64,000 nucleotides of DNA from a virus (Duplodnaviria > Caudoviricetes): IMG/VR virus record IMGVR_UViG_3300004448_000116, positions 2,188-66,187 of that record; one strand, written 5' to 3'. The position numbers and the translations under genes are program-made. Position 1 is the stretch's first letter, and the number at the start of each line of letters is the position of its first letter. Below are positions 20,168-62,893 of this stretch, piece by piece. The notes under the pieces are model-generated. The model was not told the DNA's origin. It ran no database searches and saw nothing but the letters and a program-made list of their open reading frames with translations.

Positions 20168-20496
20168 CAGCAATTCCACCGTTTAAGGGAAGCCCCTTTT
20201 GGTGTCAACTTGCCTTTCTTACTGGTTGGTCCTTTGACACCAGTCATGCGAGCGCAGAAGGATTTTCTTCGCTTGGCAGACTTGCTACCCGCCTTCAATT
20301 TGCTGGGCTTCTTGGTGACAGGTGGTTTAAGATTAGCGCCTGTTTTGCGCTTAGCGGCGGCTCGACCTTTGGCGTTCAGCCCGCCCTTTTTGTTGTGCTT
20401 GTTAGGGTTGTACCCGTGAAACGGTTTGCTCTTCTTTTTCTTGGCGGCTTTCAATACCGCCCAAGCATGGTCCATAGCATCATCCATGTCCATCAC
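20167..20496 (-). CDS. Small highly basic protein (DUF6321-like) with AWxxLK leader
   Basis: 'GGLNAKGR..NLKPPV..RRKSFCARM..SLKRWNC' pattern; N-terminus MDDAMDHAWAVLK. Confidence 0.7.
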   Translation of the reverse strand: MMDMDDAMDHAWAVLKAAKKKKSKPFHGYNPNKHNKKGGLNAKGRAAAKRKTGANLKPPVTKKPSKLKAGSKSAKRRKSFCARMTGVKGPTSKKGKLTPKGASLKRWNC

Positions 20497-35400: not shown

Positions 35401-36929
35401 TCAGAATACTGTGCGGCAAAAGACGCCTCCATTATCTGTGCAACAGCGTCGATGCTCTGCTCGACATAAGCCGCTTTAGGCGTTGGCATTGTGCCCATGA
35501 ACGGATGGCCGGGGATGTGATTGAGTGTGTGTCGACCTGTGTGGCCTATGAGGAAATTGTCAGCCATACGAGTGGTTGCAGAGAACTTTGAATAGCCGTT
35601 ATCTGTTGTTGCCATAGTCAAAGCAAACAGCAACCCGTGATTTTCAAAGTCACTTTCGTCGATGAGAACTTGTCCTTGGCGATGAGAGAACTGGGTACCT
35701 GTACCAGCAATCTGATACGGCTCTCCTGTACCCCCGTCGACCAAGCAATCGCCCGTGACAATGACTCCGATGCCTGCACCGTGTGCCATAAGCAAACCTC
35801 TTCGACCTGTACTGGCGTTGCTTGCATAATCCAAGTGAATACTTTCGACGGTCATTGTACCAGCAGACGCATCCACTGCTGTGATTCTCACACGCTCAGG
35901 TGCTTCTCGGTTGGGAATGCCTGTGCTTTGGCTGTACCCAAGTGGATTGATAAGCAGATTGAATGGTACATGTGGTACACTGACAGTTGTCGATGACCCG
36001 CTGGTAAAGCGTTTAACGCTATAAGAGCCGTTTGATTGAGGGGAGGTGGTTAGGTCCACCGAAGTCAGACCGCTTTGTCCGGTGAACTCGTCGACCAAGG
36101 TCTGTGCCAATGTGGTACCGATTGAAATGGATGATGATGCTCCTGTCGAAGCCGATAGAGAAGGTAGCGTAATACTGGTAGCAATGGGTTCAACAGGTTC
36201 TTCAAATCGCCAAAGACCGAGTGTTGAGTCGCTCTTGGCAGGCAAAGACAAATCGTGCCCAGCGTCGGATGCTCCTCTGCTCCAGTGCACTGCCTCAATA
36301 GTGCCACGATATTCCCCTCCTGTACCACCAATGCTGAGTTGTGTAGGATGGAGGGACAGTTCGTGTTCTTCGTCAAGCGTTTTCGATGCGATGACATCTC
36401 CGTTGATGTGGAGCGAAAGTATTGTGCGGTCAAAAGTCAATGTCACTTGAAGCAGTTCTCGGTGTCCGAGATTAAGCCCAGTCAGGTCATTCTTGCTGTC
36501 GTCCTGTGCGTTGAATGTATCGTGTACATCAAGGCCAGCGCGAGGGAAGGTGACGCCGTCCCAGTATGCTACATTTCCATCCAAACCAGAAACGGCTTGT
36601 GCACTGCTCAATGTGAATGTGTTTTCAGCATCGTTGGCTATGTTGCGCAACTTGATTTGGGCGTGTGCAGGTCCGGGGCTCGATGGGCTTCCTACGATGA
36701 TGCGGCAGACATTTTCCTGTTCCCAGACTATGCCCCCGGAATCTGGAATAATCCAAGCCTCGATAGTGAAGGCAGACAACGCAGTTGGTGTTTTCTGATG
36801 CGTCAGGTCACTACCTGTGTGTAGTTCTCCAAAGTTGTTCTTAAATGTCATTTGGGGAACAATGACACCATCGGTGATACCATTGAAGAAAAGGGCGTGA
36901 CTTGGTTCGATTGATACGGTCATACTCAC
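20493..36929 (-). CDS. Giant 5478-aa virion adhesin/tail-tip protein (N-terminal LamG/ConA-like domain, internal beta-propeller)
   Basis: Uninterrupted 16.4-kb ORF; 'ALFFNG..FTIEAWI..HING..IGG..YRGTI' LamG pattern; propeller repeats near 22.6-23.5 kb. Confidence 0.8.
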   Translation of the reverse strand: MSMTVSIEPSHALFFNGITDGVIVPQMTFKNNFGELHTGSDLTHQKTPTALSAFTIEAWIIPDSGGIVWEQENVCRIIVGSPSSPGPAHAQIKLRNIANDAENTFTLSSAQAVSGLDGNVAYWDGVTFPRAGLDVHDTFNAQDDSKNDLTGLNLGHRELLQVTLTFDRTILSLHINGDVIASKTLDEEHELSLHPTQLSIGGTGGEYRGTIEAVHWSRGASDAGHDLSLPAKSDSTLGLWRFEEPVEPIATSITLPSLSASTGASSSISIGTTLAQTLVDEFTGQSGLTSVDLTTSPQSNGSYSVKRFTSGSSTTVSVPHVPFNLLINPLGYSQSTGIPNREAPERVRITAVDASAGTMTVESIHLDYASNASTGRRGLLMAHGAGIGVIVTGDCLVDGGTGEPYQIAGTGTQFSHRQGQVLIDESDFENHGLLFALTMATTDNGYSKFSATTRMADNFLIGHTGRHTLNHIPGHPFMGTMPTPKAAYVEQSIDAVAQIMEASFAAQYSDLSDCVPPGSPVVFNDLFGPYDVSGLAFSSVPTQAVENGMAGVDDTQRALLAIGGDGFDAESFALRNMGDTSPTGDAHTRHMTPSTESRVAILKVPSLSTYDYAPFVQVHYNAIDFAGTGMKHAATGRLTHNYSSSVIKFQSTEAFGKTGTTIRADYISIAGEVAGASSITATLDHSAKTLTFSSAPTSAFQTAAVTGAIVNVSLRGSALLIEKTIPSGNTQLASGVKMVDLIHSDISAGTAVLYAPGGVLEFDSDSSFYIEDGGLVGDDSEGTIAETQLDVSLTPDNYLPLHSTDSVQKAPQVIASALYDNTVHKSFFHKLVISASINEQITPNLEASGNFQAEFKKEVRPRTGVLVNNGGGYSATATSITVDGVDATTKFGVGLNVYTQKGLLLGAITSLSSTAIGISAGIAGTVADNEELFHQPLMQTVSSTNQSTAVNEVFDIIGHRTKSGRTRVVVQPSDRRRFSQLTKMLTNKDDSEPNTVIVQYVVGRGKVVDFDSNAQNDTVMRAHGLVADALSNSVNVKGDGAPDSHIVKEIMPGSPVVTMTMGGVGQGAVNTKPTWDPSPTARLGWSTRRDCTTKVSALGSTTITVVPLNNNATDLASWGTYCFPKVGKIFLQKPGIEGADNQLFASAEYTSKTGSVFTFASGTTHLGSGKFVLFDGTEAASFADWKTGTAIAIGGYLQVDDKFNAESIAPDGTTINDRLFQTLDTVQHDYQLGTQYASTRAMIEFPLFEEFFFDDPVAGVFPGPDNSMKLHLDATYTAPTWAPNPVGRRPKSVAPEDPQVHSAFSHPVSQKTHKRGTTISAEYDSSNRRIYVKDASLFPIPSAAPVVIGGIGGALRFRSAFTKNGEWVIYSAIDTTNNYLTVAGNAAADDAWAFSSNFLRDYQVGSRISPAQGIQNMNYTSIADNPLLSSAGFEQRSEFYYDRANVMTQGGNIDYGLKQYVSAVEFRSGPSTNPHLPHVQNKRARAIVEAFSSPNLTLESSETWPATTSHSTHAYRVRYYDSTASAYKHAHYKTRTGNVLSLITIDSGFNPSAGTEITLVDFHATGSTLPATLNTQLLNTKWANPFCPGGLRDGDTVWMNMQYTNPHSVEGLFCKSRGTLNEGQVWTGFLGGASDFATTPRESIPMENFLIGNSCLETSRNFVQHINKTIELNYEALGLSATLAPTVAYLDPYQCTEDYARVLLYDVAHDREFIAFQDLWMQVQSSPATAKVKTPVDVANGFPSQHKGTASTAKSEFMEAAMAHNNSGQLNVTIATHATGYHNHIPDVTATMRRTNDDVTEYGNPENIHNQIDSSTSETATLFDTPDGTRAVPAFLSMKGIRSSTLDLSGHEESRLQHLPHWNQMDFVRRLTLDFGEIGVRQGITDIEAAAREVVRRINQAGAKTGRTHARRPADQFLGEADRFDLGKGHSATSTNPRKDPTAPHQKADFAATGSTHDPAPFWNSDTAFGSHDRGTHMGYMRAHLGRVVNNAEGKKGYSIIVHSTVPGASGRNFCAWMDNSNGQAPYRPEYLIGHGGRFRNYWCQPDEMDGENMHPAPMPITKFGRPFAPITTLREYIPMEEVDADYQNTLDFGPEVHGSGAINAHSTDEHATGRSSNTILNASFEPKSDGKVLVEGLRVGTQAKARINFGGLTQAGIPGWAPDAGKWGMGRDGVSTRYDYIYGDKDLAAGTKQHGLVNQSGGGYIPDDDIRPDKMGTGQLYGIRMVDHRGDSHTIRMAYKQYGEALGNSLTRLPPTLDNEVIIHFDDRDVGQGGFTIGKHISGKGDVCGQYTGGTKQSFRGNLWNTYNSPAVGISATFQKDGSNDNFKIVLAAPYGTGSNLAHTDILGYLGLPDSGLIQLNDVAGTANNGETYYYTSRSHYAKAGASGIHYLYGVKNIGSGYSSAVTRIFSPRINFTSLLTDEVIAAAVNHAINMEDPNTEDVSATSFDCTSYLAPDGKTLGEWGVAPDAIRIKAHSSKHKVTPLRHLFQSSVGKDWGIQAAASNLGTGTNHLGGLTGAEIAAGVRLDVGYIPATVLHITTKYRGPNANTATPVLVDSLNDSVNVKQWRDNLRGDTYIRLPGDRITPCVNTVMVNIGSKDTSTTPDHLVLPSNEYLYLAMTPASNDANAWSEEVVFWRGDTDWARAVSKAGAAENKLDLLNHSADFVSNVAAGDVIVNHGNLLKFHDCDGIRTTGSHHGEPFLYFRGGRSSVDRWVPLYFGGGFSGVTLDINDGTQNDYEEFYTHPYSSGPTGSAGMQNVGEAAGSYALIDTNAMLAMFPGTPYLNQHNGQHYPPFFNKDAMLSPDLDGGNNTNASSTGVTYAGGGKTVNCNRPSPIVLRFSHPHARYSATSAAGDATTYLVFGPGQAVPHNFQSYEPQLSDIITTGNGYSAVPSAHPAGESFLPNLISHGGSTLYGFSANLPPTKEYQASNISGYNWILNWEPTKGMPNSRFYGQAAGKGRYYDSHFGPSSPVAYAHPFDDVFKNYAGTFIGAIANTKASNSLWHMDGGYHPGGHFLDNHIIRNVKNPSSTNRLATGSGDTRNPSVFRVSSAIAKAYSHADASGNFFIIDATRCQNAEELATVLAAGINTFAGADPLKAIGGTFLPTMQHAGKQDRYGWVALDAVADGYTAEDGAVATLQATATLPTTLPTYGWLRVSNGTKSAFAPYVSYSGSTFTLGKNGITNSTNLVDPTTKAAIAAAQVNGDNGPVKIYVWTKAGTHQYNNTTQSREHMTQVHFNGFMDAVDRTKPIGAVGWAGEAYSYLNSYNGTSIGGTKFPAGLGAWHPFLGFAPYGSAETCLASSPPVGITDTPSSLVSDFCVHGLSSRHLVAVSHESELPLIAKTDRDGIIASGDWLSVKADGNILRAGTQAWNTSRVHNKSRYNAPATAGPHVEANIRASTDFTAYPDVDTVAYPNARVTSASHVSRADPCQSPTGDLFWDKSIMPTNQLHTLAETLVQECVGIASRTEYHGTSAGLYKYYDTKSAARNFTEEHIVWKRMDGGNLTMPASNARGLGMIPWTVRKDGGSYKTVGEKILGNCRFSFESTNSAMFPIIQAQELSHPQLAQKHINEKENALIIPNEHLQFESMQVVDDTGQEHRLEGGSPLGTVIMDFRHVSDRDIEGLAPAIAGSGVSPNMKIRLPNADEIPGNIIVRPGFDRIQAYQNETMGSGGLMHPAQAQPSITDTFKETYDGPRLWPTWENNGWEHLSQDGTDLSDDRLAFPASSSKGWESHTDNAPLNTAYEPHDRSLQFHVTRVGVTMTHRYDVDELTYSGYSGAEITVGSTPESDTWLDNSEPSGGRWFLRVYDPATNKGVLASYTGKGTNKFTGVVYSPDFVSFVTGKTGLKVVPSYFMPAGSTRFFASRRLRDHSEYSGASPDMKTIDWSAVNGTPSTALAAPKMTPMPIPRMGHHYVTPTMALMPGHYAHPAYQRLYNLGQANQITTSSTFEDDMSSQYSGADLLERLNRRDPLVWFSGASAPHGPSDIHGGAFTLLTETKVKFDGYGIAASKGSAGTTNSQGGHSIVLEAAGSYTLNNHFPDPMEVGAYQIIIQPNVFKQQLSGYHSNHSDAVKAPSESGSKVTELTGQQVNTVVAIAHDDGSNTNGAYTLILAEAIMADVRGCEIMLNEIMLDIEPDASSQFTNLPPLANYNALGVEETTSPAFSRRTLPYHPNMFIQTTPGFTLTVPWWAQLHKDGATASAATYFRHLEWHTPDHYYQMNRATFGAVGAQITLAGYPTCYPDIYAEHYRVRSLNPNAKVTASSAGGSTVNVDNAELFPVKAYYGEVLEYTDANGERQTATYANRTGTLAHATLGTPTQFQGVTEVTPLFFDNLTNGTIIRLSGPYDNRKADEIFTNSLVSMTTRVMPQTMNGTRDTNSLHLADAYLCMWHPNLGRPFTYYSDDNSRGFYDKNGATDTPVLKKGLNNVPEHFETIHYNDFFYAASKGPFVFGMNWIRPPAPVTDSYSLQKISDSVGTTANRRGINFQMIANTTTWMTGIRVAGDDIIVSNRGHNNDYDTDNILFSKIDIANTNGTYDQQSSGIGDSVMSSCDGFDLDPTGTKMLIAGFHDTDGVRSATLSSAFDLTTISLTGSLKASGGNGVRAVSWNNDGSKYYMAYASTLRQFTAASAYVVASGDSEGTSSSIASTISDILFNADGSKMWLSFAEGYVREYTLSTPFATNTASLDVTVDLRTYFLNKSASVSQTNSDATPWISGIDWSDDGTKLYVSTLWGVIDDSKMANNPSPSTVNGVDGGSTTNRFPIMEISISTTSIVGGTGASSTAAEIDSNENLSHQGGTIGSEKYNFAGYWPGGSRGGAGSSRLDGFLETLIGWGGKLFGVDCVSFHDNTGLEERTYAQMTTASDNARNTCFGYRFGLRQPYNRPRWSPYVRGYLEVANANALLGYYHGPFIQQDNKDDGWVTDSDYPATYTGVLERLTQISALLNQDQLGRQVRYSDGRRMTRPFGCPVRTIRNSTSVRRMYAGDRAGLDIAEIAQAHRYYMVDWWGNTRGEDVRRFPVRGFGISPAWDPEDAYEDGGSGNRPEANGLFATSTDRQSGNSNTANNDVAAMAIVDWFNPTNAMRVGDRGDGRGVRWPTHFNESLLMDISETVEPTGLVLSQPTAEPTVGKGLVRPRNDVLQAGETDRGISARLDLADDDGLLKPTAMVNETTESITTDTMLAEPVGGDGVRIGLDVDTLGELNDGVSREYVVMSTEAHSLHSNRDVGQRTTLRGAMNVGNRTLGHLDLTALDWTGQPVKGVIKVSDAHSFWALGGTYVMNWKRRVGALDVTGWGEAGATSSSNPYQDSNHTSVTENINHADSEIEFLVRPAFVLDNSHVQLFRSNMAVKSGAPQAGGTFYAATAGGKYGIYTSDAASARTGTPSSPPYAPVYSVNPANSAAVSQGPKILGVDVSGYNKTDITQPVARITMSENTLEHFRSDAARKEDYSVEPRHSQTLHPKGSKGDTSFNSGDHSTE

Positions 36930-50136: not shown

Positions 50137-51321
50137 TCAAGACAAATCTCGGATTGAACCATGACCTCCAAAGAAAGTTGTCCAGACTTCACCCATTGTT
50201 CGGTAAAGTCCCTCTTGTCCGAGGCGGTTAATGGCGAATGGGTCACCGGTTTCAATACCAGACTCGTAGTACTGAGTTGGTTTTGCAACACTAAAGTGAA
50301 GGTAGTCAGTGTCCAAGAAGTACATTCGGCTGATACCGTCTGCTGTGACATCCTTGGATGGAATGATTGGGACACCGTTGTAGGTAGCGACGATGAATCC
50401 GGCTTCGATACCGGGGACACCCTTGACGCCGCCCATGGTTGGGGTCACACGCTTTTCTTCCATGAACCGCTGTTGGCTCTGGAGGAGTTGTTGCAGGCGC
50501 ATCAAAGTGTCATATCCTGTGAGGATGACCTTTGGATTGCCACCACGGACCCAAATCTTCTGGAAGATGTCGTCGATGTGGTCGAGGCTGAGAACACGCT
50601 CAGTCAGCGAAGCGTCAGTTGCGACATTGACTTCTGCGTTGGACCAAGAGTTTCCACTTCGGTCGATGCTGTAAATGTCAAGGTCAGATGCGGCGCTCAC
50701 ATGCGCAGTGTGAGTAGTGGAAGAGCCACCGCTCACGGTTGCGGCATATCCAGTACCGGTTGCGTCCATGGTGCTTGAAGCAGTGATTCGGTCCAAGGAC
50801 TCGTAATCGTTGCCAGCAGGAGTGTCAACATCTTGCAAAAGCATCTTGTTGATTTCCTCTGCGTGGTGCTTGCCCATTTCCTCTTTGAGGACGGAGCGGA
50901 TGTCACCAAGACCGTCATCCTTGTCGTTAAGGAAGATTGCAACTTCGCTCATGTCGAAGGTGTGTGCAATGGTCTTTGGCTTTGCGGCCACATGTTGGAA
51001 GACAGGCTTGGTGGTTTCTGGAAGTGTTCCATTCTCAGCAATGCCGCCACCCTTGGATGAATCAGGGCGAGCGGTCACGACACGCCATCCAGAGCGGTCC
51101 CAAGGTTTCTTGGGCAAAATGCTGAATGCGTTGAATTCTTGGTTGAGTTGGGACCACACTTTGCGTCCGTAGATTGCTTGGTAGGTACCAGCAGTCGTCG
51201 AGAGCATTGGTGCGTCAGCCTTCAGAAGTTCACTACCGGAGTATGCGTAGCCCATGTTTGAGCCTGCACCGTAGTAGTAGCGTTCCATATCGTTAATTGT
51301 TCGTAGGTAGTTTCGTGCCAT
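50137..51321 (-). CDS. Major capsid protein (HK97 fold)
   Basis: 394 aa after the protease gene; 'GGIAENGTLPET', 'AKPKTIAH', 'TYNGVPIIPS', 'HGSIRDL'; strong SD GAGGAGG. Confidence 0.9.
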   Translation of the reverse strand: MARNYLRTINDMERYYYGAGSNMGYAYSGSELLKADAPMLSTTAGTYQAIYGRKVWSQLNQEFNAFSILPKKPWDRSGWRVVTARPDSSKGGGIAENGTLPETTKPVFQHVAAKPKTIAHTFDMSEVAIFLNDKDDGLGDIRSVLKEEMGKHHAEEINKMLLQDVDTPAGNDYESLDRITASSTMDATGTGYAATVSGGSSTTHTAHVSAASDLDIYSIDRSGNSWSNAEVNVATDASLTERVLSLDHIDDIFQKIWVRGGNPKVILTGYDTLMRLQQLLQSQQRFMEEKRVTPTMGGVKGVPGIEAGFIVATYNGVPIIPSKDVTADGISRMYFLDTDYLHFSVAKPTQYYESGIETGDPFAINRLGQEGLYRTMGEVWTTFFGGHGSIRDLS

Positions 51322-51334
51322 ATATTATTCCTCC

Positions 51335-52747
51335 TCATTCAAATGCTTTTCCCGCAAGACTGTGGACTTCGTCCCAAGACATGTTTGCGAGGTCTTCAGT
51401 TGAAGGGACATTGATGGATGGTGCGGCGGCCGACTTGCGGATGCTTGCACCTTCGGCGGAGCCGAGGTTGTCGATGCGACTGCTCAAGGAGGCAATTGCC
51501 TTCTCGATAGAAGCAAGTGGTTGGCGTGCATCAAAATCTTGAGCACGGCGGGATTCGACTTCGTGAGTCTGTTCCTTGGCGAGTCGGTCAGCGAACACAT
51601 TTCCAAGAGAGGACTTGAGTTGCTTTTCGATGGATGCGGCCTTGTAGGCTTCGTATGCCATCTCGACTTGAGAGGAGGTGAGGTCGGCTGGGTGAAGGTA
51701 GCCCTTTGCAACATCTGCTTTGGAGCCACTGTTCAGGGCGCTGATTGCACCGGTTGATGGGTTGCCACCTTCTTGGGCTCGTCCACGGACTTGTCCAGCG
51801 AAGTATTCAGCACCGTCAACGGACGATGGGTTGTCGAAGCCACCAAGTTGTGCCTTCTCCAAGTTGTCGAAGTGGGAACGAGCGTTAGCAGTGTCAACAC
51901 CGCCAGCCTTGAGTGTGTTCTCCATCCAGTTGAGGTAGTCAGATGAGATGACATCGCTGTATTCGGATTTTGCGGCCATGTCTTGGTCGCCACCGTACAT
52001 TTTGTCTTCCTTGTCCTTGTCTTCGGACATTTCTTTGCCCTTGTCTTTGTCCTTGTCTTCGGAAGATTTGTCTTCATCTTTTTCTTCTTTCTTATCGTTC
52101 ATGGCCGCAAATGGGTTGACGCCTTTTTCACCCTTTTCCATTCCATCAAGTCGCATGTTAATTCTGTCCAGTACGGACGAAAGTTCATTCATTGTTGTAT
52201 CTTCTGTCATATTCGTGTCCTCCTTCAAAATTCTGAAGGTTGCTTCTGGGTTGATACCCTTTTCGCAAATCGTCACTTCGTGGAGTTCTAACTTGGAGAT
52301 TTCAGTGTAATCTCCATGCTTTGAATCGGATTTGTTGACACGCTTGAAAGCCTGTCCTCCGATACTGAACCCCCGTAGGGCACCCTTGCGAATTTCATTG
52401 GCCACTTCTCGGGCCTTTTCGATGTCATCACGAAGTTTGATGACAACAAAGAGCCCGGCATCATCAACGCCGGATTTCCAAAGTCGTCCACTGCTATCAG
52501 TGTAAGAGTCGATAACCGACCCGACTTGGATGTTGGAATGTGCGAGTTGCACATTGCGGAAGTCTTCTGCTTTCATGAATCCACCAAATGCATCCTTTAG
52601 TGCATTGCGGGTGATGAGGTCGCCTTGCTTGTCGACCATTTCGACGGAAGCATATCCTGCGACGACAAGGTCCTGACCACTCTTCAGAATAGAAATACTA
52701 CCTTCTTGGGAGAAGGGAGTGGTTCTGAGGGAAGTCGCCATGACCAT
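51335..52747 (-). CDS. Prohead protease fused to a scaffold-like C-terminus
   Basis: 'VAGYASVEMVDKQGD', 'LAH', 'GFSIGG', 'LHEVTICEKGINPEA'; acidic and coiled-coil tail. Confidence 0.88.
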   Translation of the reverse strand: MVMATSLRTTPFSQEGSISILKSGQDLVVAGYASVEMVDKQGDLITRNALKDAFGGFMKAEDFRNVQLAHSNIQVGSVIDSYTDSSGRLWKSGVDDAGLFVVIKLRDDIEKAREVANEIRKGALRGFSIGGQAFKRVNKSDSKHGDYTEISKLELHEVTICEKGINPEATFRILKEDTNMTEDTTMNELSSVLDRINMRLDGMEKGEKGVNPFAAMNDKKEEKDEDKSSEDKDKDKGKEMSEDKDKEDKMYGGDQDMAAKSEYSDVISSDYLNWMENTLKAGGVDTANARSHFDNLEKAQLGGFDNPSSVDGAEYFAGQVRGRAQEGGNPSTGAISALNSGSKADVAKGYLHPADLTSSQVEMAYEAYKAASIEKQLKSSLGNVFADRLAKEQTHEVESRRAQDFDARQPLASIEKAIASLSSRIDNLGSAEGASIRKSAAAPSINVPSTEDLANMSWDEVHSLAGKAFE

Positions 52748-52780
52748 TACCCCACGATACGACGGTCATATTATATTAAG
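52748..52780 (-). promoter_or_regulatory. Putative promoter of the capsid operon
   Basis: Minus strand reads CTTAATATAATATGACCGTCGTATCGTGGGGTA-ATG; AT block at -30 to -22. Confidence 0.55.
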
Positions 52781-55700
52781 AGGTATGATACACGGCTTTG
52801 TCCTCTGTGAGTTCTAAATCAGAACTCAGTGCGCTGTTTTTATCAACTTCTTTTTTGTCTTCGGCCTCGTCTTTCTTGTCCCTTTCAATATCACGCACAT
52901 CGTAGTCAGGCATGGTGTTGCTATCGTCAAGGTTTGTGGGGCCGCCGGGTGATTGCAGGCCAGAGCCATAATCAAAAGCGAGTCCCTTTGCTCCAGAGTT
53001 ATCCCCGCTTACGGCACCTGCACTGCTCTTGGCAAGCAAACGCATAGCAACTTCAAGTCCCTTAGCCATGACTGCTTTCTTTTTCCAGTCCGTGTCCTTG
53101 ACCTTCTTAGGTTCAATGAGTGGTTCGGCATCATCTTCGGATTCGTGCACCTGTGCCTTTTCTTCGATTTCCATGTTGGCCTTCAACAAGATGCCAACAA
53201 TTGGTGACCAGAATGGGCGTTGGCTTTCTGAAAGCCGAATCAGATAACCGTTATCACTGCGTGGCGTGTGGACTGCCCAGCCTACTTGTGTTTGCGTAGC
53301 CTTGTACAAAACAGAACCCTCATTCATTTCAATACGAACAAGGTGGCCCTTTCTAAAAATTTCAACTCCGTGTTGGTATGGTTCAGCCTTAGCAAGAATT
53401 CCAAGGGAGTCACTGCTGACGAGGGGGTCGCCTTCCGCTTCACCTTCGATTTTAGATGCATGTACCGTGTACAACTTCTGCTGTTCAGACGCCTGAGTTT
53501 CGGTCACATTGGTGACATCGACCTTCACCAAGTCACCGACATTGTACTTGTCTTCACTTTCAAAAGCCGCTCCAACATCCATGTAATCTTCATCTTCGTA
53601 CTTGACTCTGCGGTCACCCAAGTCTTCACCGTGTGCAACAGGTCCGGTTCCAAGTCGGTATGTGTAAGGCCCGTCACCTCGGCGGTCAAGGACCATGAGC
53701 ACAACTTCTGTGCCGCTTTGCAACATAACCCACTTTGGGTGACGAGGCTCTCCTTTCATGTAAGCCGACTGAGCGTCACGCATGAGAATGCGGTCAGTAT
53801 CGAGAGCCTTGACCGCAGAAGCAAGACCGTCGTCGTCAGTGAGTTTTGTGTCAGATGCACTGGGCACATGCACCATCTCATAACTTTCCATGGCACCACG
53901 AAGAATCTTGATGCGCTCTTGAACCACCATTTCGTAGGCTTTTTCATCGTCGTATTCAACAACATCGAAGATATGCAATACATCCTTGCCACGGATGACA
54001 TCAACGATGTACTGCTTATCACTGACTTTTTTGAAAGCATCTTTCTCTTCATCAGAAAGAGTAGCCTTAGAGAAAATTTTGCCCTCTTTGTGACCAACGA
54101 AAAACCGCTCGCCTTCTGGGAATGCACTTACAATCCAGTCGCCAGTGAACCCACGAAGATGTTCCAAATCACTCAGTTCAAAAATACGATGCATAGGTTG
54201 CAAAGATGGAACGCCCTCTGGCATGTCCTTCCTGATGACATCAGGATTTGTGAGCGAGGCAAGAAGCGAAGGGCCGTCCATCTTATTGTGCTCTGTACCC
54301 TGACCGCTATATATTGTTCGGTTTGCAGAATTAGGTAGCATAGAATGAGGCATGCTGTCCAGAGTGTGAGCACCCTTGTGCGCTGGACCGAATGCAGAAT
54401 GATGTTCTGGTGGAGCAAGGGCCAGCACTGAGGGCAGTGTCGGAGTAATCAATTGCATCTTTTCTGGCTTATCCTTCTTGTACGCTGTCATTTCTCCTGT
54501 GGTATGGTCGATGTGAAGACCAAGTGGTACGGTGTGGTTGCGGCTACCCTCATGGTATCTGAGCGAAGGAGAACTGTAAATGGCCATGGCGGCATTTGTG
54601 TCATGGCTACCAAGGGCACCTATCTGTTGTAATTCTAACGCATGGTCTTCTCGCATACTGTGAGTCTTTCGCTCGTGTTGTTCATCAACTGGTCGAGAAA
54701 CAAAACCAGAAAGTGTCGAAAGCAAACCGAGGATGTGCTGGTCGTGTTTTGTGACTTGGTCCGGTTTTTTGTACCGTTTAGGTACCTGCAACTCTGGCTC
54801 GCCTGCTTTTCTGCGGCGTTTGTTCTCTGTTTCAAAATATGTTGGAGAAAGTTGATGTGCGGAGGAATGGAGGGGGTGATGTGACAAAAAATTGTCTTTC
54901 ATTGCGGGTCTGTTTTTTGTCAGGTTCTCAAATTGTGTCAAAGTCTGCATAATCTTGCGTCGACGGTTGAACCTATCCGTCCAACCTTTGTCCTGTGCGT
55001 GCAGAGGATGGATGTTCGTGCCCTTAATATGCGAAGGCTTCGCTTCCTTTCCACGGGACTTGCGCCTTTTTGCCCCTGTAAGCAACAGGTTTTCCAAAGG
55101 TACATTGTCAGCAGACTTGGTATTTCCCATCGGATGTCTATCGACGATTTTGTCACCGATTTTCCTAAAACTCATTTCATCTTTCAGATAAGTCGGCAGA
55201 CTGTCACCGAACTTTTGACCGTACACTTCATCCGACATTCCGCCCATCCTGCGAATAATTTCTTCCGAAGGGACGACCATGAATTCCCTACCTATTTTGT
55301 CTTCGGCCTTGTTTTTCGCCATGAGTTGCCGTTTGACTTCTATGGCGTGCTCGATGACCCCTTTGTCAACATTGTTCTCCACGACCTCGTTCCCGTCCTC
55401 ATCCTCAACCAGTTCTGTCAAATCCAATTTTCTAAGCCACTCGGCATCTGTCAGACCACTGGGGTTAAGTTTGTACGGGTTCGTTTCCAACATATTGACA
55501 AGCATATTTTCGTGCGATACGCCCTCACCCGGATTTTCTTCTTCTACTTGCCCAACAACGGGCATCATAGCCCCGATTTTATGACTTCCATGTGGAGCAA
55601 CATTGAGGAAGGTATTCCCTTGCATCATCAGCCAAGCGACCGCTGTGTCAGGCCGTGGGTTTCCAAATTCATCCTTGAACATTTCAAAGGGGTCAAAGCC

Positions 55701-58667
55701 TTGCTCAAGACATTTCTGCAAGACTAACATAGCCGCTTGTTCAATAGCCTCAATGTGACTATTGACTGTTTCTTGAAATTTACCTTCACTGTCCAGATGC
55801 CGATAACGAGGGTTTGGGATTTCTTTACCTTCCCTGTCCAGATGAGGAGCAATTTCATCATCAGTCACAACATTGAGTTCGTTCTCAATATCGAGCAAAT
55901 CTTGCTCATGATGGTGTTTTTCCATTTTCAATCTGTCTATTTCTTCAACCTGTACAGCATCTGGACTGTCCAAGCGCAGGAGTTTTTGCAAATCGTCGTT
56001 GACTTGATGGAGTTCCATAGAGATGTAATCATGGTTGTGATGGAGTTGTTCAAGTCTTCCATCTTCATCTTCATCTTCATCGGGCAATTGAACCGTTTCA
56101 TCTGAACTCTCAGGCAGTTCCCCTGATTGTCGTGCCTCAAGATAACGCTTGAGGCCAGCGAGGTCCCCTTCAACAAGTGACCCGCCTCCGTGAATCTCAT
56201 CATGGCGTTGTCTTGCCAATTGTTTTTGCGTTTGAAGGGTCTGCAAACCTTGTTCGACATTGCGAACCGTTGCCTCGGGAATAAGAGGGTTTGCCTTTAC
56301 TTGTGCCAGAGAACTGAGGTACTGTTGAAGCAACTCTTCTTTCTCAAAAACGAACTCAGGGGCACTAAAAGAAGGCGGAATCGCTCCTTGTTTTCTGCGC
56401 TCTCTGTGCAACGCCCGCTCAAATTCTATTCTTGGCCCAGCCCCGAATTGAGCGTCGGGTACATCAAGCGGTATCTTTCGAGCATCGTGGGCTCTGACTC
56501 CTTGGGGATGCGTGGAAGGTAATCTTGCTCCTATCATTGCGGCTATCTTGTTGTGAGGCAGTGCCCTTTGTCCTTCCTTGAACGCAGAAGTTGATGTTTC
56601 AATGGCATTATTACCGGTACCCAAGAAGGCATTGTACGGAGCATGTACGGGTGCCTTTGTTGTATCGAATTGTTTGTCTTTGATTCTTTTTGCTGTACCG
56701 GTGTCACCCGCCGACATGGCCGAATGGTATTGAGTGTATGCTTCATTTACTTGTCTTCCTGCAAAGGTGTTGAGGTCACGAGTAATGTGCCTATTGCCAA
56801 ACCCTTTCCAATACACGGGTCCTCGCCCAATACCCATGTGCATTGACTCATCAGGTGGAAAGACAAAATTGACAGGGCCGTGTTCTGAATCTCTGGTAAA
56901 TTCACCACGGAGGTCAGGTACACTATATCCGGGGCGCATGCTGTTCAATTTAACATGAGAGTACCCCGGCAAAGTATCACCTACTGTATCTTCATACATA
57001 GGCCCCATCAAGGGGCGAATATCCATTTCGTGCGCCCCTTGTTGATGTGAAGAAAAATGAGTTGACCTTTCGCCCTCAACCAAATTAGTTGTGTGCTCGA
57101 TGTGTTTTCTGGTTTCGTGAGCCTTGCCCATACCACCTGTCCGCATGTGCGCTTTTGACCAATGATGGCTTAGTGATTCAGGCTCATTCATTGTGTACTC
57201 TTCTGGGTGCGCACCTTCACCTTCGTGCGCAACATAAGGCTGAGAGTGGAAAGCAACAGCATTTCTTGCACCGTGGTCCTTTCTATTTTTACTCATTTCT
57301 TCTTCAAACCTAAGCAGGTATTGTTTGATTTCATCTGGAGCCCAGTCCACTGAATTAGGATTCCACAGTTCCCCGTACAAGGGGTGCTCTCCCTGCTCAT
57401 AGAACCTGTAAGAATCGCCTCTCCTCTGAGTTGAGTCAGGGTCAATACCTGCCGCCAAGAGCAAATCGTTCTTTGAAAAACGGTCCTCGGGCGTACTATT
57501 TGCTGTATTTCTTCGGCGTAATCGACCGCCGCTCGGAAGGAAATATCCATGTTCATGTGGTTGTTTCATGTTGCCCCTTTCAGAATTGTAATCAAGAATG
57601 CGTTGAAACAAATCAGGTGCGTTCTGTTTGAATGTATTCTTAAATTGTACATTATCGTACTTGTAAGGCGGGTCTTTGAGCAATCTGGCAAGGACTGGGT
57701 TGGCGGCATAATTTGGGTGCCCTGTCCAGTGCTGGGCAATAGAAGAATAACGCTGTAAAAAATTACGCTTGGCTCGGGGTATGGAGTAATTCTCCAAACC
57801 CGGTATGGTTTGGTGCTCAGGGCTGTCCATATCATTCTCGGCCATGTGCTGATACACTTGTACACGCTGTGCAGGCGTAAGCCATTCCATTCCGTACAAG
57901 TAGTCCTCTTCACCCATACCTATGCGTCTTCCGCTCTCTTCGTCAATCTCGTCGCTTTGCCAACTTTTGACAGCCTCGTCCATGTGTATTCGGCGTAGGA
58001 ATTTTTCAAATTCTGCACCGTTAGGGCCATTCAGTCTATCGAGGATTTTTGGATTTCTTTCTATTTGTGGTTTGAGAAAATTGTAGTAATGACGCTCATA
58101 CAAATCGTGATTGCTTTGATTTTGCGGCAACGCACCTAAGCCATCAGGTTTTGTAATGTGGTCACTTAACAGATGCTCCTTTTCCCAAGCGTACTCTTTC
58201 TCTTTGTGCTTTTTGGAAACACCATCTGTGAAAAAGGATTCAAGCAAACGAACCCACATAGGTGCCATACTGAATTTTTCGCCGTCTGATTTAATTCCGC
58301 TATGGGTTTCATGCAAGGGGTCGAAATCAAGCGGCGACACATCTGGAAAGTGCTCTGCGCCCGTACCACGAAGTTCTTCCTGACGCTCAGGTGTAAGTTC
58401 GTTGAATTTTTGAATACGGTTTTTAGGCCAATGACTGCCTCTATGGACAGAGTCTTCCAATTTCTGTACTCGTTGTTCTTGTGGATATTGGGTCGGCAGT
58501 GATGACTGATACAGGCCGGGAGCGTCGGCAGAAGTTAAGGGCGGTACCGGTGCATTTCGATTTTCCTCATCTTGATACAGGGACATTGCCCTGTTAGGGT
58601 CAACTCCCAACGCAGAGGCTTGGTTAGCCTCATCTTCTGCGTCTTTCAGCAGAATATCTTCGGACAA
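52776..58667 (-). CDS. 1963-aa protein with C-terminal degenerate ATP-dependent DNA ligase fold (NTase + OB)
   Basis: LQPM, WIVSAFPEGER, YIVDVI, HIFDVV, ERIKIL, DRILMRD..S.Y..G..R..KW, OB-like domain; TTG start with SD GGCGGTGA. Confidence 0.75.
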   Translation of the reverse strand: MSEDILLKDAEDEANQASALGVDPNRAMSLYQDEENRNAPVPPLTSADAPGLYQSSLPTQYPQEQRVQKLEDSVHRGSHWPKNRIQKFNELTPERQEELRGTGAEHFPDVSPLDFDPLHETHSGIKSDGEKFSMAPMWVRLLESFFTDGVSKKHKEKEYAWEKEHLLSDHITKPDGLGALPQNQSNHDLYERHYYNFLKPQIERNPKILDRLNGPNGAEFEKFLRRIHMDEAVKSWQSDEIDEESGRRIGMGEEDYLYGMEWLTPAQRVQVYQHMAENDMDSPEHQTIPGLENYSIPRAKRNFLQRYSSIAQHWTGHPNYAANPVLARLLKDPPYKYDNVQFKNTFKQNAPDLFQRILDYNSERGNMKQPHEHGYFLPSGGRLRRRNTANSTPEDRFSKNDLLLAAGIDPDSTQRRGDSYRFYEQGEHPLYGELWNPNSVDWAPDEIKQYLLRFEEEMSKNRKDHGARNAVAFHSQPYVAHEGEGAHPEEYTMNEPESLSHHWSKAHMRTGGMGKAHETRKHIEHTTNLVEGERSTHFSSHQQGAHEMDIRPLMGPMYEDTVGDTLPGYSHVKLNSMRPGYSVPDLRGEFTRDSEHGPVNFVFPPDESMHMGIGRGPVYWKGFGNRHITRDLNTFAGRQVNEAYTQYHSAMSAGDTGTAKRIKDKQFDTTKAPVHAPYNAFLGTGNNAIETSTSAFKEGQRALPHNKIAAMIGARLPSTHPQGVRAHDARKIPLDVPDAQFGAGPRIEFERALHRERRKQGAIPPSFSAPEFVFEKEELLQQYLSSLAQVKANPLIPEATVRNVEQGLQTLQTQKQLARQRHDEIHGGGSLVEGDLAGLKRYLEARQSGELPESSDETVQLPDEDEDEDGRLEQLHHNHDYISMELHQVNDDLQKLLRLDSPDAVQVEEIDRLKMEKHHHEQDLLDIENELNVVTDDEIAPHLDREGKEIPNPRYRHLDSEGKFQETVNSHIEAIEQAAMLVLQKCLEQGFDPFEMFKDEFGNPRPDTAVAWLMMQGNTFLNVAPHGSHKIGAMMPVVGQVEEENPGEGVSHENMLVNMLETNPYKLNPSGLTDAEWLRKLDLTELVEDEDGNEVVENNVDKGVIEHAIEVKRQLMAKNKAEDKIGREFMVVPSEEIIRRMGGMSDEVYGQKFGDSLPTYLKDEMSFRKIGDKIVDRHPMGNTKSADNVPLENLLLTGAKRRKSRGKEAKPSHIKGTNIHPLHAQDKGWTDRFNRRRKIMQTLTQFENLTKNRPAMKDNFLSHHPLHSSAHQLSPTYFETENKRRRKAGEPELQVPKRYKKPDQVTKHDQHILGLLSTLSGFVSRPVDEQHERKTHSMREDHALELQQIGALGSHDTNAAMAIYSSPSLRYHEGSRNHTVPLGLHIDHTTGEMTAYKKDKPEKMQLITPTLPSVLALAPPEHHSAFGPAHKGAHTLDSMPHSMLPNSANRTIYSGQGTEHNKMDGPSLLASLTNPDVIRKDMPEGVPSLQPMHRIFELSDLEHLRGFTGDWIVSAFPEGERFFVGHKEGKIFSKATLSDEEKDAFKKVSDKQYIVDVIRGKDVLHIFDVVEYDDEKAYEMVVQERIKILRGAMESYEMVHVPSASDTKLTDDDGLASAVKALDTDRILMRDAQSAYMKGEPRHPKWVMLQSGTEVVLMVLDRRGDGPYTYRLGTGPVAHGEDLGDRRVKYEDEDYMDVGAAFESEDKYNVGDLVKVDVTNVTETQASEQQKLYTVHASKIEGEAEGDPLVSSDSLGILAKAEPYQHGVEIFRKGHLVRIEMNEGSVLYKATQTQVGWAVHTPRSDNGYLIRLSESQRPFWSPIVGILLKANMEIEEKAQVHESEDDAEPLIEPKKVKDTDWKKKAVMAKGLEVAMRLLAKSSAGAVSGDNSGAKGLAFDYGSGLQSPGGPTNLDDSNTMPDYDVRDIERDKKDEAEDKKEVDKNSALSSDLELTEDKAVYHTS

Positions 58668-59801: not shown

Positions 59802-61532
59802 TCAAAAACCACCGGTGCTGTCACGGGCTTGCTGTAATGGCGATGCTGGTTGACCTCGTTGCTGAACGCTTCCTATTGGTGAGCCTGAGCCCATCGTTTG
59901 GAAGTTTTGAGGGCTGGCTGGTCCACGATTGCGAAGACCTGCGCCTTGTCCTCCGGGGTTCATAGCGGCCATGCCTGCATTCGCTTGTCCTGCCAACGCT
60001 CCTGCGAGTTGTGGAGGAATGTTGCGTGTAGGTAAGCCACCGGGTTGCCCCATGCCCATACCGCCGCCGCCCGGAGGCATGCCGGGTTGGCCGGGTTGGC
60101 CGGGTGGCATTTCCTGCTTCTTGTAAATGAAGCGTAGGTCACGACCGCCCTCTTCAATGAGTTCGGCCTGATAGCCGAGTTGAGCCATGCGTTGTGCGAT
60201 GTTGACTTCCATTTCATCACGGCGAAGGCGAGTGACTTCGTCTTCCTCTTCGTTTGGATAAAGCGTAAGTTTCCAATCATGGACATCCATTTCTTCCATC
60301 AAACGGGGGAACAGGTTCTCAGTGTACACTTTGTGTCCGAACTCAACGGCACGATTTGTGACAAGGACTTGAAGTCCTTCGTTGTTCAATCCTCCAGATT
60401 TACCAGTGTCCATCATGAATACATTGGACACACCATAGAAAGCGGCCAAACGGGTTCTCATTTCATCACGCACAGAGATGTATTGCATTTCTTCAAGCGT
60501 GTCCATGAACTTAACCCAGTTGACGCCGCCACGGCCGTTTTGGCTCTCTACCGCAATCTTAGGAATGTAGTGCGGGTCACGCTCAAGTTTCTCATCAACC
60601 CCTTTCCAGAAAGATTTCATTGATTCGACATTGTCCGTCGTAATCGAAATAAGACCTCTTGGCACACGACGCTTAGAATATGCAGTGTACATGTAATTGT
60701 CCATGGCTGTGAGAGTCATAGCCTGTCGCCACAGTGTGGCCACCGGACTTCGACCGTACAACTTTGATGGTTGGTACTTACTTACATGCAAGATTTCACC
60801 TTCAAGGTAATACTGCGTTTTACCTGCACCTGCTGTGTTGACATGGTGAACATCTTCCAGTTCATGCCCACATGTTTCGCAGTTCTTGTCGCTTTCAGAA
60901 AAGCCACGCACTTGGTCACGGTGAAGAGGGCAGACTTTGTATCGTCCACCACGCACACCTCGCTTATCAGCGACAATGCGCATAAAAATAGGGTCACCTC
61001 GCAACAACTCTTTGATGCGATAAAATTCAACTTCGTTAGTTTCTGGGTTGACATAGTATTCCTTAATCATCACCAGAAACGCATCATCGACAATGTTCAA
61101 GTCGTATTCAATCTCACGCAAAACATCCATGAACCGCTGTTCCATTGAGTTGCGCTGGTCGATAAGCCACTTTGGATAAACCAAATTGTTAGGGTCAGGC
61201 TTAGAAAGTTCTGTTGCGCCACAGTCGACGCATTCTTCGACATCATGTTGGTGTTCTTTGTCACAAATATCGCACTTCATGTGATAGGCTTTTTCCCAAT
61301 AATAACCCCGGCGAAAAATTTCCTGCTGAAGAGTGGTGATAACCGTACGCAAGATGACATTCTCTGTCGCTACCGAATAAAGTGCGGGAATGGTGATACC
61401 CTGAGCAATCACAGGTTCTTGAATACCGGTGGTCCACAGTGGCATCTGCGGCTCTGGTGTGCGTCGACGGCGGAACCGGTCTGTCAAATTGTTCAATGCT
61501 GTTCGTACTCTTCCCTTTTCTTCTGCCATCAT
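59802..61532 (-). CDS. Portal protein with Zn-ribbon insertions
   Basis: 'GEILHV...LYGRSPV', 'PRGLI', 'MQY...R..LAAFYGV'; position after terminase. Confidence 0.88.
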   Translation of the reverse strand: MMAEEKGRVRTALNNLTDRFRRRRTPEPQMPLWTTGIQEPVIAQGITIPALYSVATENVILRTVITTLQQEIFRRGYYWEKAYHMKCDICDKEHQHDVEECVDCGATELSKPDPNNLVYPKWLIDQRNSMEQRFMDVLREIEYDLNIVDDAFLVMIKEYYVNPETNEVEFYRIKELLRGDPIFMRIVADKRGVRGGRYKVCPLHRDQVRGFSESDKNCETCGHELEDVHHVNTAGAGKTQYYLEGEILHVSKYQPSKLYGRSPVATLWRQAMTLTAMDNYMYTAYSKRRVPRGLISITTDNVESMKSFWKGVDEKLERDPHYIPKIAVESQNGRGGVNWVKFMDTLEEMQYISVRDEMRTRLAAFYGVSNVFMMDTGKSGGLNNEGLQVLVTNRAVEFGHKVYTENLFPRLMEEMDVHDWKLTLYPNEEEDEVTRLRRDEMEVNIAQRMAQLGYQAELIEEGGRDLRFIYKKQEMPPGQPGQPGMPPGGGGMGMGQPGGLPTRNIPPQLAGALAGQANAGMAAMNPGGQGAGLRNRGPASPQNFQTMGSGSPIGSVQQRGQPASPLQQARDSTGGF

Positions 61533-62842
61533 AGCACCTCTTTCCAACTCATGACTGTTTCTTTGTCAATGGTCCAGTCGCCCATTTTTTTATCGAGTCT
61601 TTCGGGGTCATCCTTCCAATTCTCATACTGAACAAACAAGCGCAATTGCTCCTTGTGAATAGAACTATCCTCTTCTAAGCACCTCAATGCGGCCTTTGCT
61701 TGAAGTTCCTTCAATTGTAAATGAGGAAGAACCCCGTCGAGTACTTTCTTCACATCGGACTTAGATTGGAAGTTGAGTCTGTGTACCTTGCGCTTACTGT
61801 TTTTTCCGACAGACTCGTCAAGACTCAGGGTACCGCATCCCAAGGTTTTCTGCAAACGCTCGCAGTGATAACGACCTCTGTCACCAGTAGCCACGGCTGA
61901 TGCTCGTACCTCACCACGCTTGGTGATGAAAATTGAGCCGTCAGCATCAAAGAACCCAGCGGCGTATGCCCACGGGTCTTTGACAATGATACCATCTGTG
62001 GATAAGAGAACATATTCGCCTCTGCGTGGAGCCTTGATGATGTCGACTTCTTCGCCGTACATGCTGAGAAGTTTTGACATGCGGTTAGAATCAACTCGAT
62101 TTGCTCCCTTCTCAATCATGTTTGATGTGATGTCACGGGCACGCATGTGCCCTTTTTCTGAAAGTTCTTGCTTGGCCATGTCGAGCCAGCCTTTCTGTTC
62201 CTTTGTAAGCGTGTCAATTTGGTGCAGTCCACTGCGCCACATTTTCTTAGCATCTTGACGCTGTCCCATAGCAGAGAGCCAAGCGTTTTGTTCTTCTTCG
62301 CCCCAAACATCTTCAAATTCGTCCAACATCTTGAGAGCGTCATCGGCTGATTCCCAAAGCATGCAAGCACGGCGAAGTGTACTTTCTCTTGATTTACCAA
62401 AGAGGCGGAGGGACTTGAGATTTCTGTCACTAAGTCCGAGGTTTCGTATGGTGTCGTGATGGCTCTTTGCCCAAGATACAGAGTCAAGTGTCTTCTGCAC
62501 TTCTTGTGATTTCATTTCCCTAACGCTATTGATTGCTTTGTCAATATCGTCCTTCATGTCTTTCATGTGTCGCCGGGCACGCTTAAAATTCTTGACAACT
62601 TCTTCTGCGCCCTTTCCAAAATGACTGATGAACCATGAATCTCCGTTGATTGGGAAATCTCCGTTCTCAACAAATAATTCTGGCTTTGGTTGAGGAAGGG
62701 TCTGCTTTGCGATGGTAATTGCATTGATTGGCTGGTGCTTTAGCAGAGGGTGCGCTGTCAATGCTGACGCAACAAGGCTGGTCAAATCATCACCGACATC
62801 CAATTGATAGTAGGATGAACCAACCGACAGCGAAGACCACAT
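61529..62842 (-). CDS. Helical N-domain + HTH + single LAGLIDADG domain protein
   Basis: 'AYAAGFFDADGSIFI', 'LQKTLGCG', 'VLPHLQLKELQA'; ATGA-coupled to the portal gene. Confidence 0.8.
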   Translation of the reverse strand: MWSSLSVGSSYYQLDVGDDLTSLVASALTAHPLLKHQPINAITIAKQTLPQPKPELFVENGDFPINGDSWFISHFGKGAEEVVKNFKRARRHMKDMKDDIDKAINSVREMKSQEVQKTLDSVSWAKSHHDTIRNLGLSDRNLKSLRLFGKSRESTLRRACMLWESADDALKMLDEFEDVWGEEEQNAWLSAMGQRQDAKKMWRSGLHQIDTLTKEQKGWLDMAKQELSEKGHMRARDITSNMIEKGANRVDSNRMSKLLSMYGEEVDIIKAPRRGEYVLLSTDGIIVKDPWAYAAGFFDADGSIFITKRGEVRASAVATGDRGRYHCERLQKTLGCGTLSLDESVGKNSKRKVHRLNFQSKSDVKKVLDGVLPHLQLKELQAKAALRCLEEDSSIHKEQLRLFVQYENWKDDPERLDKKMGDWTIDKETVMSWKEVL

Positions 62843-62893
62843 AATGTTCACTCCGTCGTTGGTGCTTTATCAGCATTTGGGTCCCTAATTGGA

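Follow-up and report, generated by a model that had tools for sequence, protein, structure and literature searches.

An apparent pseudo-ligase domain in a giant head-module protein of a magrovirus

Magroviruses carry one or two DNA ligases, one of which is oddly placed among the head genes (PMC5434244). Philosof et al. (2017) described a "ligase embedded in the structural module" that forms a distinct family; their paper names the gene a ligase, and the word "inactivated" is absent from its text (PMC5434244). In three other accounts, ligase appears only within lists of replication genes (PMC10160649, PMC12999244, and PMC10768690), and a fourth contains no discussion of the magrovirus ligase (PMC8651126). 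A literature search on the magrovirus ligase and on catalytically inactive or virion DNA-ligase pseudoenzymes found no text on inactivation; Figure S1 and Table S1 of PMC5434244 lay outside its scope. Here, we analyzed a 64,000-nucleotide stretch of viral DNA (the window; positions 2,188 to 66,187 of IMG/VR record IMGVR_UViG_3300004448_000116), which comes from a magrovirus (order Magrovirales) infecting Poseidoniales archaea. Our subject is a giant open reading frame (ORF) in its head module, P0001, which encodes 1,963 amino acids (aa) from a TTG start (52776..58667). P0001 and all of its parts described below lie on the minus strand.

Residues 1476 to 1760 of P0001 are very probably a dead pseudo-ligase that is kept under selection and derives from the head-module ligase. 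Taken as a whole, the best explanation, in which we have moderate confidence, is that a dead descendant of the head-block ligase has been re-used as a nonenzymatic head-protein module. The family itself has already been published as a ligase; what is new in the present account is natural inactivation, fusion, and re-use.

Fold and active-site residues of the ligase-like domain

The original prediction, made from the DNA sequence, had singled out window positions 53390 to 54240 as a ligase fold lacking its catalytic lysines. This interval encodes residues 1477 to 1760 of the 1,963-aa ORF, and all sequence strings quoted in that prediction were found where it placed them, including VIRK at residues 1477 to 1480, DRILMR at 1625 to 1630, and KWVML at 1645 to 1649. 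The interval comprises an adenylation (nucleotidyltransferase) domain (residues 1476 to 1650; 53718..54242) and an OB-fold domain (residues 1651 to 1760; 53388..53717). Direct sequence searches gave the following picture. PF01068 matched P0001 at E 0.0013 (18.9 bits; 19.2 bits in the genome scan) over profile positions 77 to 194 of 204, below the 26.2-bit gathering cut-off, and a precomputed PF01068 match is present in 13 of the 120 listed orthologs. A phmmer search of the Protein Data Bank (PDB) with the domain found no ligase, the best match being ribosomal protein L22 (E 0.23), and the domain had no tblastn match in 50,697 phage records. When the domain alone was compared with 1.84 billion representative proteins by phmmer, there were 158 matches at E≤0.001. 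Five proteins of 696 to 912 aa (P0213, P0218, P0221, P0228, and P0234), found by the domain at E 4e-24 to 1.9e-14, all score PF01068 at about 1e-28 to 1e-30; we refer to them as the canonical lineage and to the relatives that resemble P0001 as the dead lineage. A profile of an alignment named A2 retrieved 28 PDB sequences at E≤0.01, all of them DNA ligases (best, 4eq5 at 7.6e-12), an E value that is not independent of the canonical lineage because A2 includes canonical-lineage rows.

An AlphaFold2 (AF2) model of residues 1465 to 1765, built from a 31-row alignment, had a mean predicted local distance difference test score (pLDDT) of 88.3 and a predicted template modeling score of 0.81, with pLDDT mostly >90 in the adenylation domain. 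Foldseek comparison of the model with the PDB gave 127 matches at E≤0.001, the best 50 of which are all ATP-dependent DNA ligases or ligase-containing complexes (top match 4eq5, E 3.4e-11). In VIA-align superpositions, 274 residues aligned to the Pyrococcus furiosus ligase 2cfm (Z 20.1; root mean square deviation [RMSD], 4.1 Å), and both domains aligned to 2cfm, 4eq5, and 3gde over 272 to 277 residues at RMSDs of 4.1 to 4.8 Å. The adenylation domain alone aligned to human Lig1 over 166 to 168 residues (Z about 17; RMSD, 2.6 to 2.7 Å), whereas the two-domain model compared with DNA-bound Lig1 complexes gave RMSDs of 12 to 14 Å. The entry 3gde is titled "closed conformation," and we take 2cfm and 4eq5 to be closed conformations too. 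Residues 1476 to 1760 are thus predicted to fold as the adenylation and OB module of an ATP-dependent DNA ligase, in agreement with the fold originally proposed.

In covalent nucleotidyltransferases, the residues of the conserved motifs provide the nucleophile and the contacts to ribose, adenine, and phosphate. Profile alignment to the T. sibiricus ligase 4eq5 placed F1516, within the motif I remnant SAFPEGER (residues 1514 to 1521; 54105..54128), on the catalytic lysine of KYDGAR; G1519 and R1521 of this motif are kept. In the motif III remnant YIVDVI (residues 1553 to 1558; 53994..54011), the aspartate is kept and the glycine and glutamate that should follow it are replaced by V and I. The motif IV-V remnant, DRILMRDAQSAYMKGEPRHPKWVMLQ (residues 1625 to 1650; 53718..53795), has R1630 in place of the motif IV lysine of DRILMR, and its KWVMLQ segment carries M1648 and Q1650 at the two lysines of the motif V sequence WLKIK, so that Lys-x-Lys has become M-x-Q. 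The motifs are therefore recognizable and lack their catalytic lysines, and motif III lacks GE, just as had been described.

The same losses were found across relatives. In 121 orthologs, motif I has the form S-x-[M/W/F]-P-E-G-x-R, in which G1519 and R1521 never vary. Residues were counted by column in 250 gathered proteins, 227 of which cover the motif I column; lysine is absent from 215 of these and present in 12 (M 88, W 69, Y 17, F 13, K 12, L 10, I 10, H 5, and a few others). The motif III glutamate column (1558) holds I in 133 and V in 59, and E is not among its eight commonest residues. At the motif IV column (1630), 220 of 230 relatives have R, 9 have K, and 1 has T, and the first motif V column (1648) is L in 143, M in 49, and K in 9 of about 228, with L, M, V, or I in 214. 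Of the 12 relatives with the motif I lysine, five have the canonical residue in each of the four lysine columns, and the remaining seven are proteins of about 1,100 aa with arginine in motif IV and a motif V without Lys-x-Lys. From these residues we infer that the P0001 domain would neither adenylate itself nor seal nicks by the known mechanism.

Some enzymatic or sensory use of the old cleft could nevertheless persist, either by noncovalent binding of ATP or another nucleotide or by recruiting a different nucleophile to a novel reaction. The motif IV-V hairpin is strictly conserved and has lineage-specific invariant residues (E1640, R1642, and H1643), and R1630 is a conservative swap for lysine, all of which would suit such a role. 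However, 207 of 227 relatives have a hydrophobic or aromatic residue (M, W, Y, F, L, or I) at the nucleophile position, the ribose-contacting glutamate column is I or V, only 91 of about 226 have F at the stacking phenylalanine column, and both phosphate-contacting lysines are gone. We consider a surviving enzyme or nucleotide sensor very unlikely.

Descent of the domain and selection acting on it

The canonical proteins, of 700 to 910 aa, carry the motifs EKYDGxR, EGVVIKD, and PKWIKWK, and a pattern-seeded scan, which is not a census, confirmed 502 stretches encoding P0221-type proteins in viral contigs. One canonical locus, L017, belongs to a record of 89,940 bases with a completeness rating of 100%. 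Its genes run in the order portal, a 640-aa protein, a 160-aa protein, an 828-aa ligase, protease, and major capsid protein (MCP), and the ligase gene holds the slot that the giant protein occupies in the window. There, the portal gene (59802..61547, minus strand; phrog_18178, E 6.9e-68; PF04860, E 2.2e-8, below the PF04860 cut-off) lies upstream of the giant gene, from which it is separated by two small ORFs. Downstream of the giant gene are the gene for an S78 prohead serine protease with a long C-terminal scaffold-like part (51335..52747, minus strand; PF04586, E 2.4e-10) and then the MCP gene (50137..51321, minus strand; phrog_24667, E 1.8e-56). The position between portal and protease, correctly given in the original prediction, is conserved in both lineages.

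Several observations tie the domain to the canonical head-block ligase. Only the ligase part of P0001 matches canonical loci (four of the four tested), a hidden Markov model built from 121 dead-lineage orthologs alone recovers the canonical proteins from the 250 gathered proteins at E 1e-42 to 1e-50, and stretches such as PM[HY]RIF..L..LRGF[ST]G are common to both lineages. Homology to the head-block ligase and occupancy of the same gene slot thus go together in P0001. Relatives of P0001 number 165 at E≤0.001, and among the 120 matches listed, lengths range from 1,126 to 2,016 aa. Fusion of a canonical ligase to the capsid protease was seen at none of 80 canonical-lineage loci, whose ORFs are 600 to 1,005 aa.

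Sequences with intermediate features were also present. A basal in-between group (P0210, P0220, P0222, P0224, P0225, P0227, P0229, P0230, P0237, and P0240; about 1,100 aa where full-length) has the motif I lysine in 7 of 10 members, arginine in motif IV in all nine that cover the column, and the motif V lysine pair in none; none of seven intermediates reached E≤0.01 for any Pfam family. A tree of 112 rows was inferred with IQ-TREE in quick mode, with two 505-aa replicative ligases as the outgroup. In this tree, the five canonical rows form the sister group of the complete set of 105 degenerate rows (SH-aLRT support, 95). A basal clade of eight degenerate rows has arginine in motif IV and keeps the motif I lysine in five, and none of the other 97 has that lysine. 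On this rooted tree, the dead forms appear as one derived group, and the simplest reading would be that motifs IV and V were lost once and that the nucleophile, by then useless, decayed afterward. The ancestor would be an ATP-dependent DNA ligase carried inside the magrovirus head-gene block, with residues 1476 to 1760 of P0001 as its dead descendant.

Conservation within the giant protein is strongly uneven. Measured on 35 diverse full-length orthologs, mean column conservation is 0.43 to 0.74 over residues 1461 to 1760, 0.34 to 0.65 over residues 1761 to 1960, and 0.08 to 0.48 over the first 1,460 residues, and the motif IV-V stretch is the most conserved part of the protein (0.73). The ratio of nonsynonymous to synonymous substitution rates (dN/dS), taken from three mutually nonindependent comparisons with close relatives (about 90% identical), is 0.036 to 0.038 for the ligase domain, 0.11 for the C-terminal 203 aa, and 0.32 to 0.34 for the N-terminal 1,475 aa. 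No part of the giant protein is more strongly constrained than the dead domain, which is under purifying selection. The loss of all catalytic residues is what a functionless, decaying relic would show, but a relic would hardly be the most conserved part of its protein, with a dN/dS of about 0.04, or be kept in 165 or more relatives, and we give this explanation almost no credence. Because a ligase fold without its lysines is kept here under strong purifying selection, "exapted pseudo-ligase," the term used in the original prediction, is a fair description.

Charge, the C-terminal block, and possible roles of the domain

The original prediction further suggested that the domain binds or protects genome ends or nicks, or else acts structurally. 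A DNA-end or nick binder would hold or shield the end of the genome inside the capsid or following ejection but would not seal it. Such a role would be in keeping with retention of the whole DNA-recognizing fold (adenylation and OB domains), with conservation of the motif I arginine and other cleft residues, and with the location of the gene in the head block; in addition, Lig4 that has been engineered to be catalytically inactive retains a structural role in end joining (PMC9638927, PMC11754673, and PMC3694833). The surface properties of the domain, however, point the other way. In P0001, the ligase domain has a net charge of -21 and an isoelectric point (pI) of 5.0, and the OB domain alone is acidic (net charge, -12; pI 4.4). 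Median net charges in the family are -8 for the adenylation domain (n = 203) and -8 for the OB domain (n = 190), compared with -1 and +1, respectively, in the canonical proteins (n = 5). Basic residues occupy 27 columns in at least 80% of canonical rows. In the dead lineage, 14 of these columns count as lost (<30% basic) and 9 as kept; 6 of the 7 in the OB part are lost, and only two columns turned basic. In addition, the N-terminal DNA-binding domain PF04675 was not found in four dead-lineage records, and the predicted arrangement of the two domains fits closed rather than DNA-encircling structures. Acidification and the loss of conserved basic columns favor a protein-binding or structural role over DNA-end binding, and we regard an end or nick binder as unlikely. 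Of the roles first suggested, the structural one is thus favored.

The pseudo-ligase would then no longer be mainly a DNA clamp and would more likely be a rigid protein-binding or structural module. The conserved motif IV-V hairpin, with its lineage-specific invariant residues, is the basis for reading it as a rigid unit. After the OB domain come a small beta/alpha domain (residues 1766 to 1832; 53172..53372; pLDDT about 90 over model residues 6 to 72), an acidic linker, and a C-terminal tail that is mostly low-confidence or disordered (residues 1833 to 1963; 52779..53171). The AF2 model of the C-terminal 203 aa has a mean pLDDT of 61.5 and, small domain included, had no Foldseek match in the PDB at E≤0.001. 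The tail contains a near-invariant S-P-x-G-P-T motif (residues 1906 to 1911; window 52935-52952). Counted as [S/A/N]-P-x-G-P-T, it occurs in 173 of 176 full-length proteins of the dead lineage, in six of seven intermediates, and in none of five canonical proteins; this co-occurrence with the dead state suggests that the tail motif arose with inactivation. Pseudo-ligase, small domain, and S-P-x-G-P-T tail would together form a conserved C-terminal block of the giant protein.

The original prediction also had the domain bounded by VIRK/D and ILAK/A and released by the protease. We used hydrophobic-x-K|[A/S/G] as a candidate head-protease site pattern. In the protease-scaffold protein, it occurs 14 times against 4.1 expected (reached by 0 of 300 shuffles), and in P0001, it occurs 15 times against 8.6 expected (reached by 12 of 300 shuffles). 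The pattern is also enriched in a replication-block protein, g12603 (7 against 2.0 expected, reached by 1 of 300 shuffles), and is therefore not specific to head proteins. Only two sites in P0001 are conserved, at residues 1758 (28 of 35 orthologs) and 1827 (27 of 35), both C-terminal to the ligase fold. The first, LAK|A (residues 1758 to 1761; 53385..53396), is a candidate prohead-protease site that ends the OB domain; all 121 orthologs have K1760, which is followed by S in 90, A in 21, and G in 7. The second, LLK|A (residues 1827 to 1830), ends the small beta/alpha domain. At the other proposed boundary, the lysine of VIRK is conserved in 101 of 121 orthologs and is followed by E in 49, K in 30, and D in 23; with an acidic or basic residue after the lysine, VIRK|D falls outside the pattern. 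Of the two proposed boundaries, the LAK|A side is thus conserved and the VIRK|D side does not fit, and release of the domain by the protease is not borne out. With both conserved sites C-terminal to the fold, a protease, if it cuts, would trim the tail rather than excise the domain, and the head protease may do so after K1760 and/or K1829. The LLAK helix is also found in the canonical-ligase lineage. The MCP has ELLK|A at residues 31 to 35 in 73 of 73 relatives, which is uninformative on cleavage because this N-terminal region of the MCP is invariant as a whole. A complex prediction for the C-terminal 203 aa with the protease-scaffold protein scored 0.00 and says nothing either way.

We propose, as a best guess, that the conserved block ties the giant protein to conserved head components during assembly and that the fast-evolving N-terminal 1,475 aa (54243..58667) are variable cargo. 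This N-terminal part is poorly conserved and, as the original prediction had noted, has no assigned family (Pfam and PHROG). A head-anchoring, protein-binding role for the pseudo-ligase block is a tentative suggestion, less secure than re-use as a module in general. A more specific version is unlikely in its entirety: the old active-site cleft would dock the S-P-x-G-P-T tail motif or a conserved head component, the pseudo-ligase block would be a head-incorporation handle for a 1,475-aa cargo delivered to the host, and the lineage would possibly be without a working ligase. Alternatively, the protein might not be a virion component at all and might act late in infection within the cell, for example in assembly or in takeover of the host, with its head-block position reflecting co-regulation. 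Consistent with this, Pfam (E≤0.01) and PHROG searches of the giant protein found no Phage_Mu_F (MuF) or other known head-incorporation domain, although remote homology in the N-terminal part is possible. Conversely, the portal-protease slot is conserved in both lineages, and the two conserved sites fit a motif enriched in the protease-scaffold protein, which makes a purely intracellular role improbable.

Several points weigh against the interpretation that we prefer, a dead ligase re-used as a head-protein module. Virion presence, cleavage, and a binding partner are all things that we infer from gene position and motifs. The N-terminal 1,475 aa yielded no hint of cargo function: residues 130 to 560 gave no lead in an atlas search, and the N-terminal part had no profile match to the portal-side ORF of about 600 aa in the canonical lineage (hhalign probability, 0.03). 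A lysine might possibly reach the old active site from elsewhere in the fold; K1645 is invariant (active relatives have it too), and K1587 and R1590 are basic in the dead lineage only. Around the old cleft, the polar residues R1521, D1556, R1630, D1631, E1640, R1642, and K1645 are invariant in 121 orthologs, which could equally mean that a small-ligand or nucleic-acid site has been kept. The charge comparison rests on five canonical sequences, with four canonical fragments counted in the "dead" group, and acidification speaks only weakly against DNA binding. Finally, the tree is a quick search with a long outgroup branch, and eight of its rows have fewer than half of their columns filled.

The host virus, its other ligases, and comparison with known systems

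The window shows the magrovirus pattern of a halovirus-like head module, an archaeal-type replication block, and a chaperonin. It lies in a record of 66,187 bases with an estimated completeness of 62%. The MCP matched 11 of 50,697 phage records, all from archaeal viruses, and its best cultured relatives are the Haloarcula tailed viruses HVTV-1, HCTV-1, and HCTV-5 (32 to 34% identity). By tblastn, the whole giant protein gave nothing below E 0.66 against the head region of HVTV-1; large halovirus proteins in the same slot are thus not detectably related. The window also encodes an RFC-like AAA ATPase, a family B polymerase (PolB), and PD-(D/E)XK and ERCC4 nucleases, as well as a thermosome subunit (window 13324-14829, plus strand; PF00118, E 1.9e-132). 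Thermosome subunits are a marker of magrovirus groups A and D, and all magroviruses have a nuclease gene inserted within the structural module (PMC5434244). Directly upstream of the portal gene, a 440-aa ORF (window 61529-62851, minus strand) has an HNH endonuclease match (phrog_5046, E 9e-10). A single 5,478-aa ORF downstream of the tail genes (window 20493-36929, minus strand), neither half of which has a Pfam family at E≤0.001, may be a giant fiber or adhesin. A metabolic-looking protein with an HMGL-like (pyruvate carboxyltransferase-type) domain is encoded at window 15893-16762 (minus strand; PF00682, E 2.5e-18); no auxiliary metabolic genes were seen in magroviruses (PMC5434244).

The PF01068 model had a single match, the head-block domain (23.6 to 26 bits), in each of three dead-lineage records with completeness of 85, 93, and 98%, whereas two canonical-lineage genomes each encode a head-block ligase and a 505-aa replicative ligase. 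Searches of dead-lineage records with PF04679, PF04675, and PF01653 and with the 505-aa ligase as a protein query found nothing. The dead lineage may thus encode no working DNA ligase, as judged from four Pfam ligase models and a replicative ligase query on genomes that are 93% and 98% complete. If this is true, the "nearly complete replisome" of magroviruses would rely on the host for sealing. A 483-aa ORF beside the clamp-loader gene (G000:C1:360-1811, plus strand, = L171:360-1811), about 380 bases before the first base of the window, is conserved in 40 relatives and had no Pfam or PDB sequence match, either as a single sequence or as a profile. Compared with the ligase alignment by hhalign, this family gave a weak collinear match over motifs III to V (121 columns; E 0.0021; probability, 13.6%), and the ORF has no lysine at the expected motif I place; it may be a second ligase-derived protein without the lysine. 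Two ORFs in the window, g1435 and g2757, were considered as a second pseudo-ligase and rejected.

Magroviruses, which are uncultured, rank with the most abundant viruses of archaea in surface ocean waters. As the head-block gene cannot be a ligase by the known mechanism in the dead lineage, annotation and replisome inventories need correcting. Intact copies and dead but more conserved copies at one position constitute a clear-cut natural example of an enzyme that has become a nonenzymatic module, and the pair of lineages offers a route to the purpose of the head-block ligase itself.

Among described proteins, P0001 is closest to the magrovirus structural-module ligase, with which it shares the portal-protease slot and clear homology over the adenylation and OB domains. 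Unlike the canonical form of that ligase, P0001 has none of the four lysines, scores below the Pfam cut-off, and carries a 1,475-aa N-terminal extension and a different C-terminal tail with S-P-x-G-P-T. It resembles archaeal and eukaryotic Lig1-type ligases (2cfm, 4eq5, 3gde, and human Lig1) in its adenylation and OB fold (Z 17 to 20) but lacks their N-terminal DNA-binding domain and catalytic residues and has an acidic surface. Inactive DNA ligase IV likewise illustrates a ligase fold that is useful without catalysis; there, however, engineered point mutants leave the DNA-binding enzyme otherwise intact, whereas the loss in P0001 is natural, multimotif, and ancient and is accompanied by loss of basic residues.

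T4 internal proteins and SPP1 gp7/MuF-type minor head proteins are examples of proteins packed into phage heads. Another is P1 DarB, a large protein of about 2,000 aa that is packed into the phage head (PMC12810830). No sequence or domain relation of P0001 to these proteins was found (Pfam and PHROG, including the MuF domain). Like them, however, P0001 is very large and is encoded among head genes beside the protease. With possible protease trimming and with a conserved, putative incorporation part joined to a variable part, P0001 would resemble head-packed proteins in its overall organization as well.

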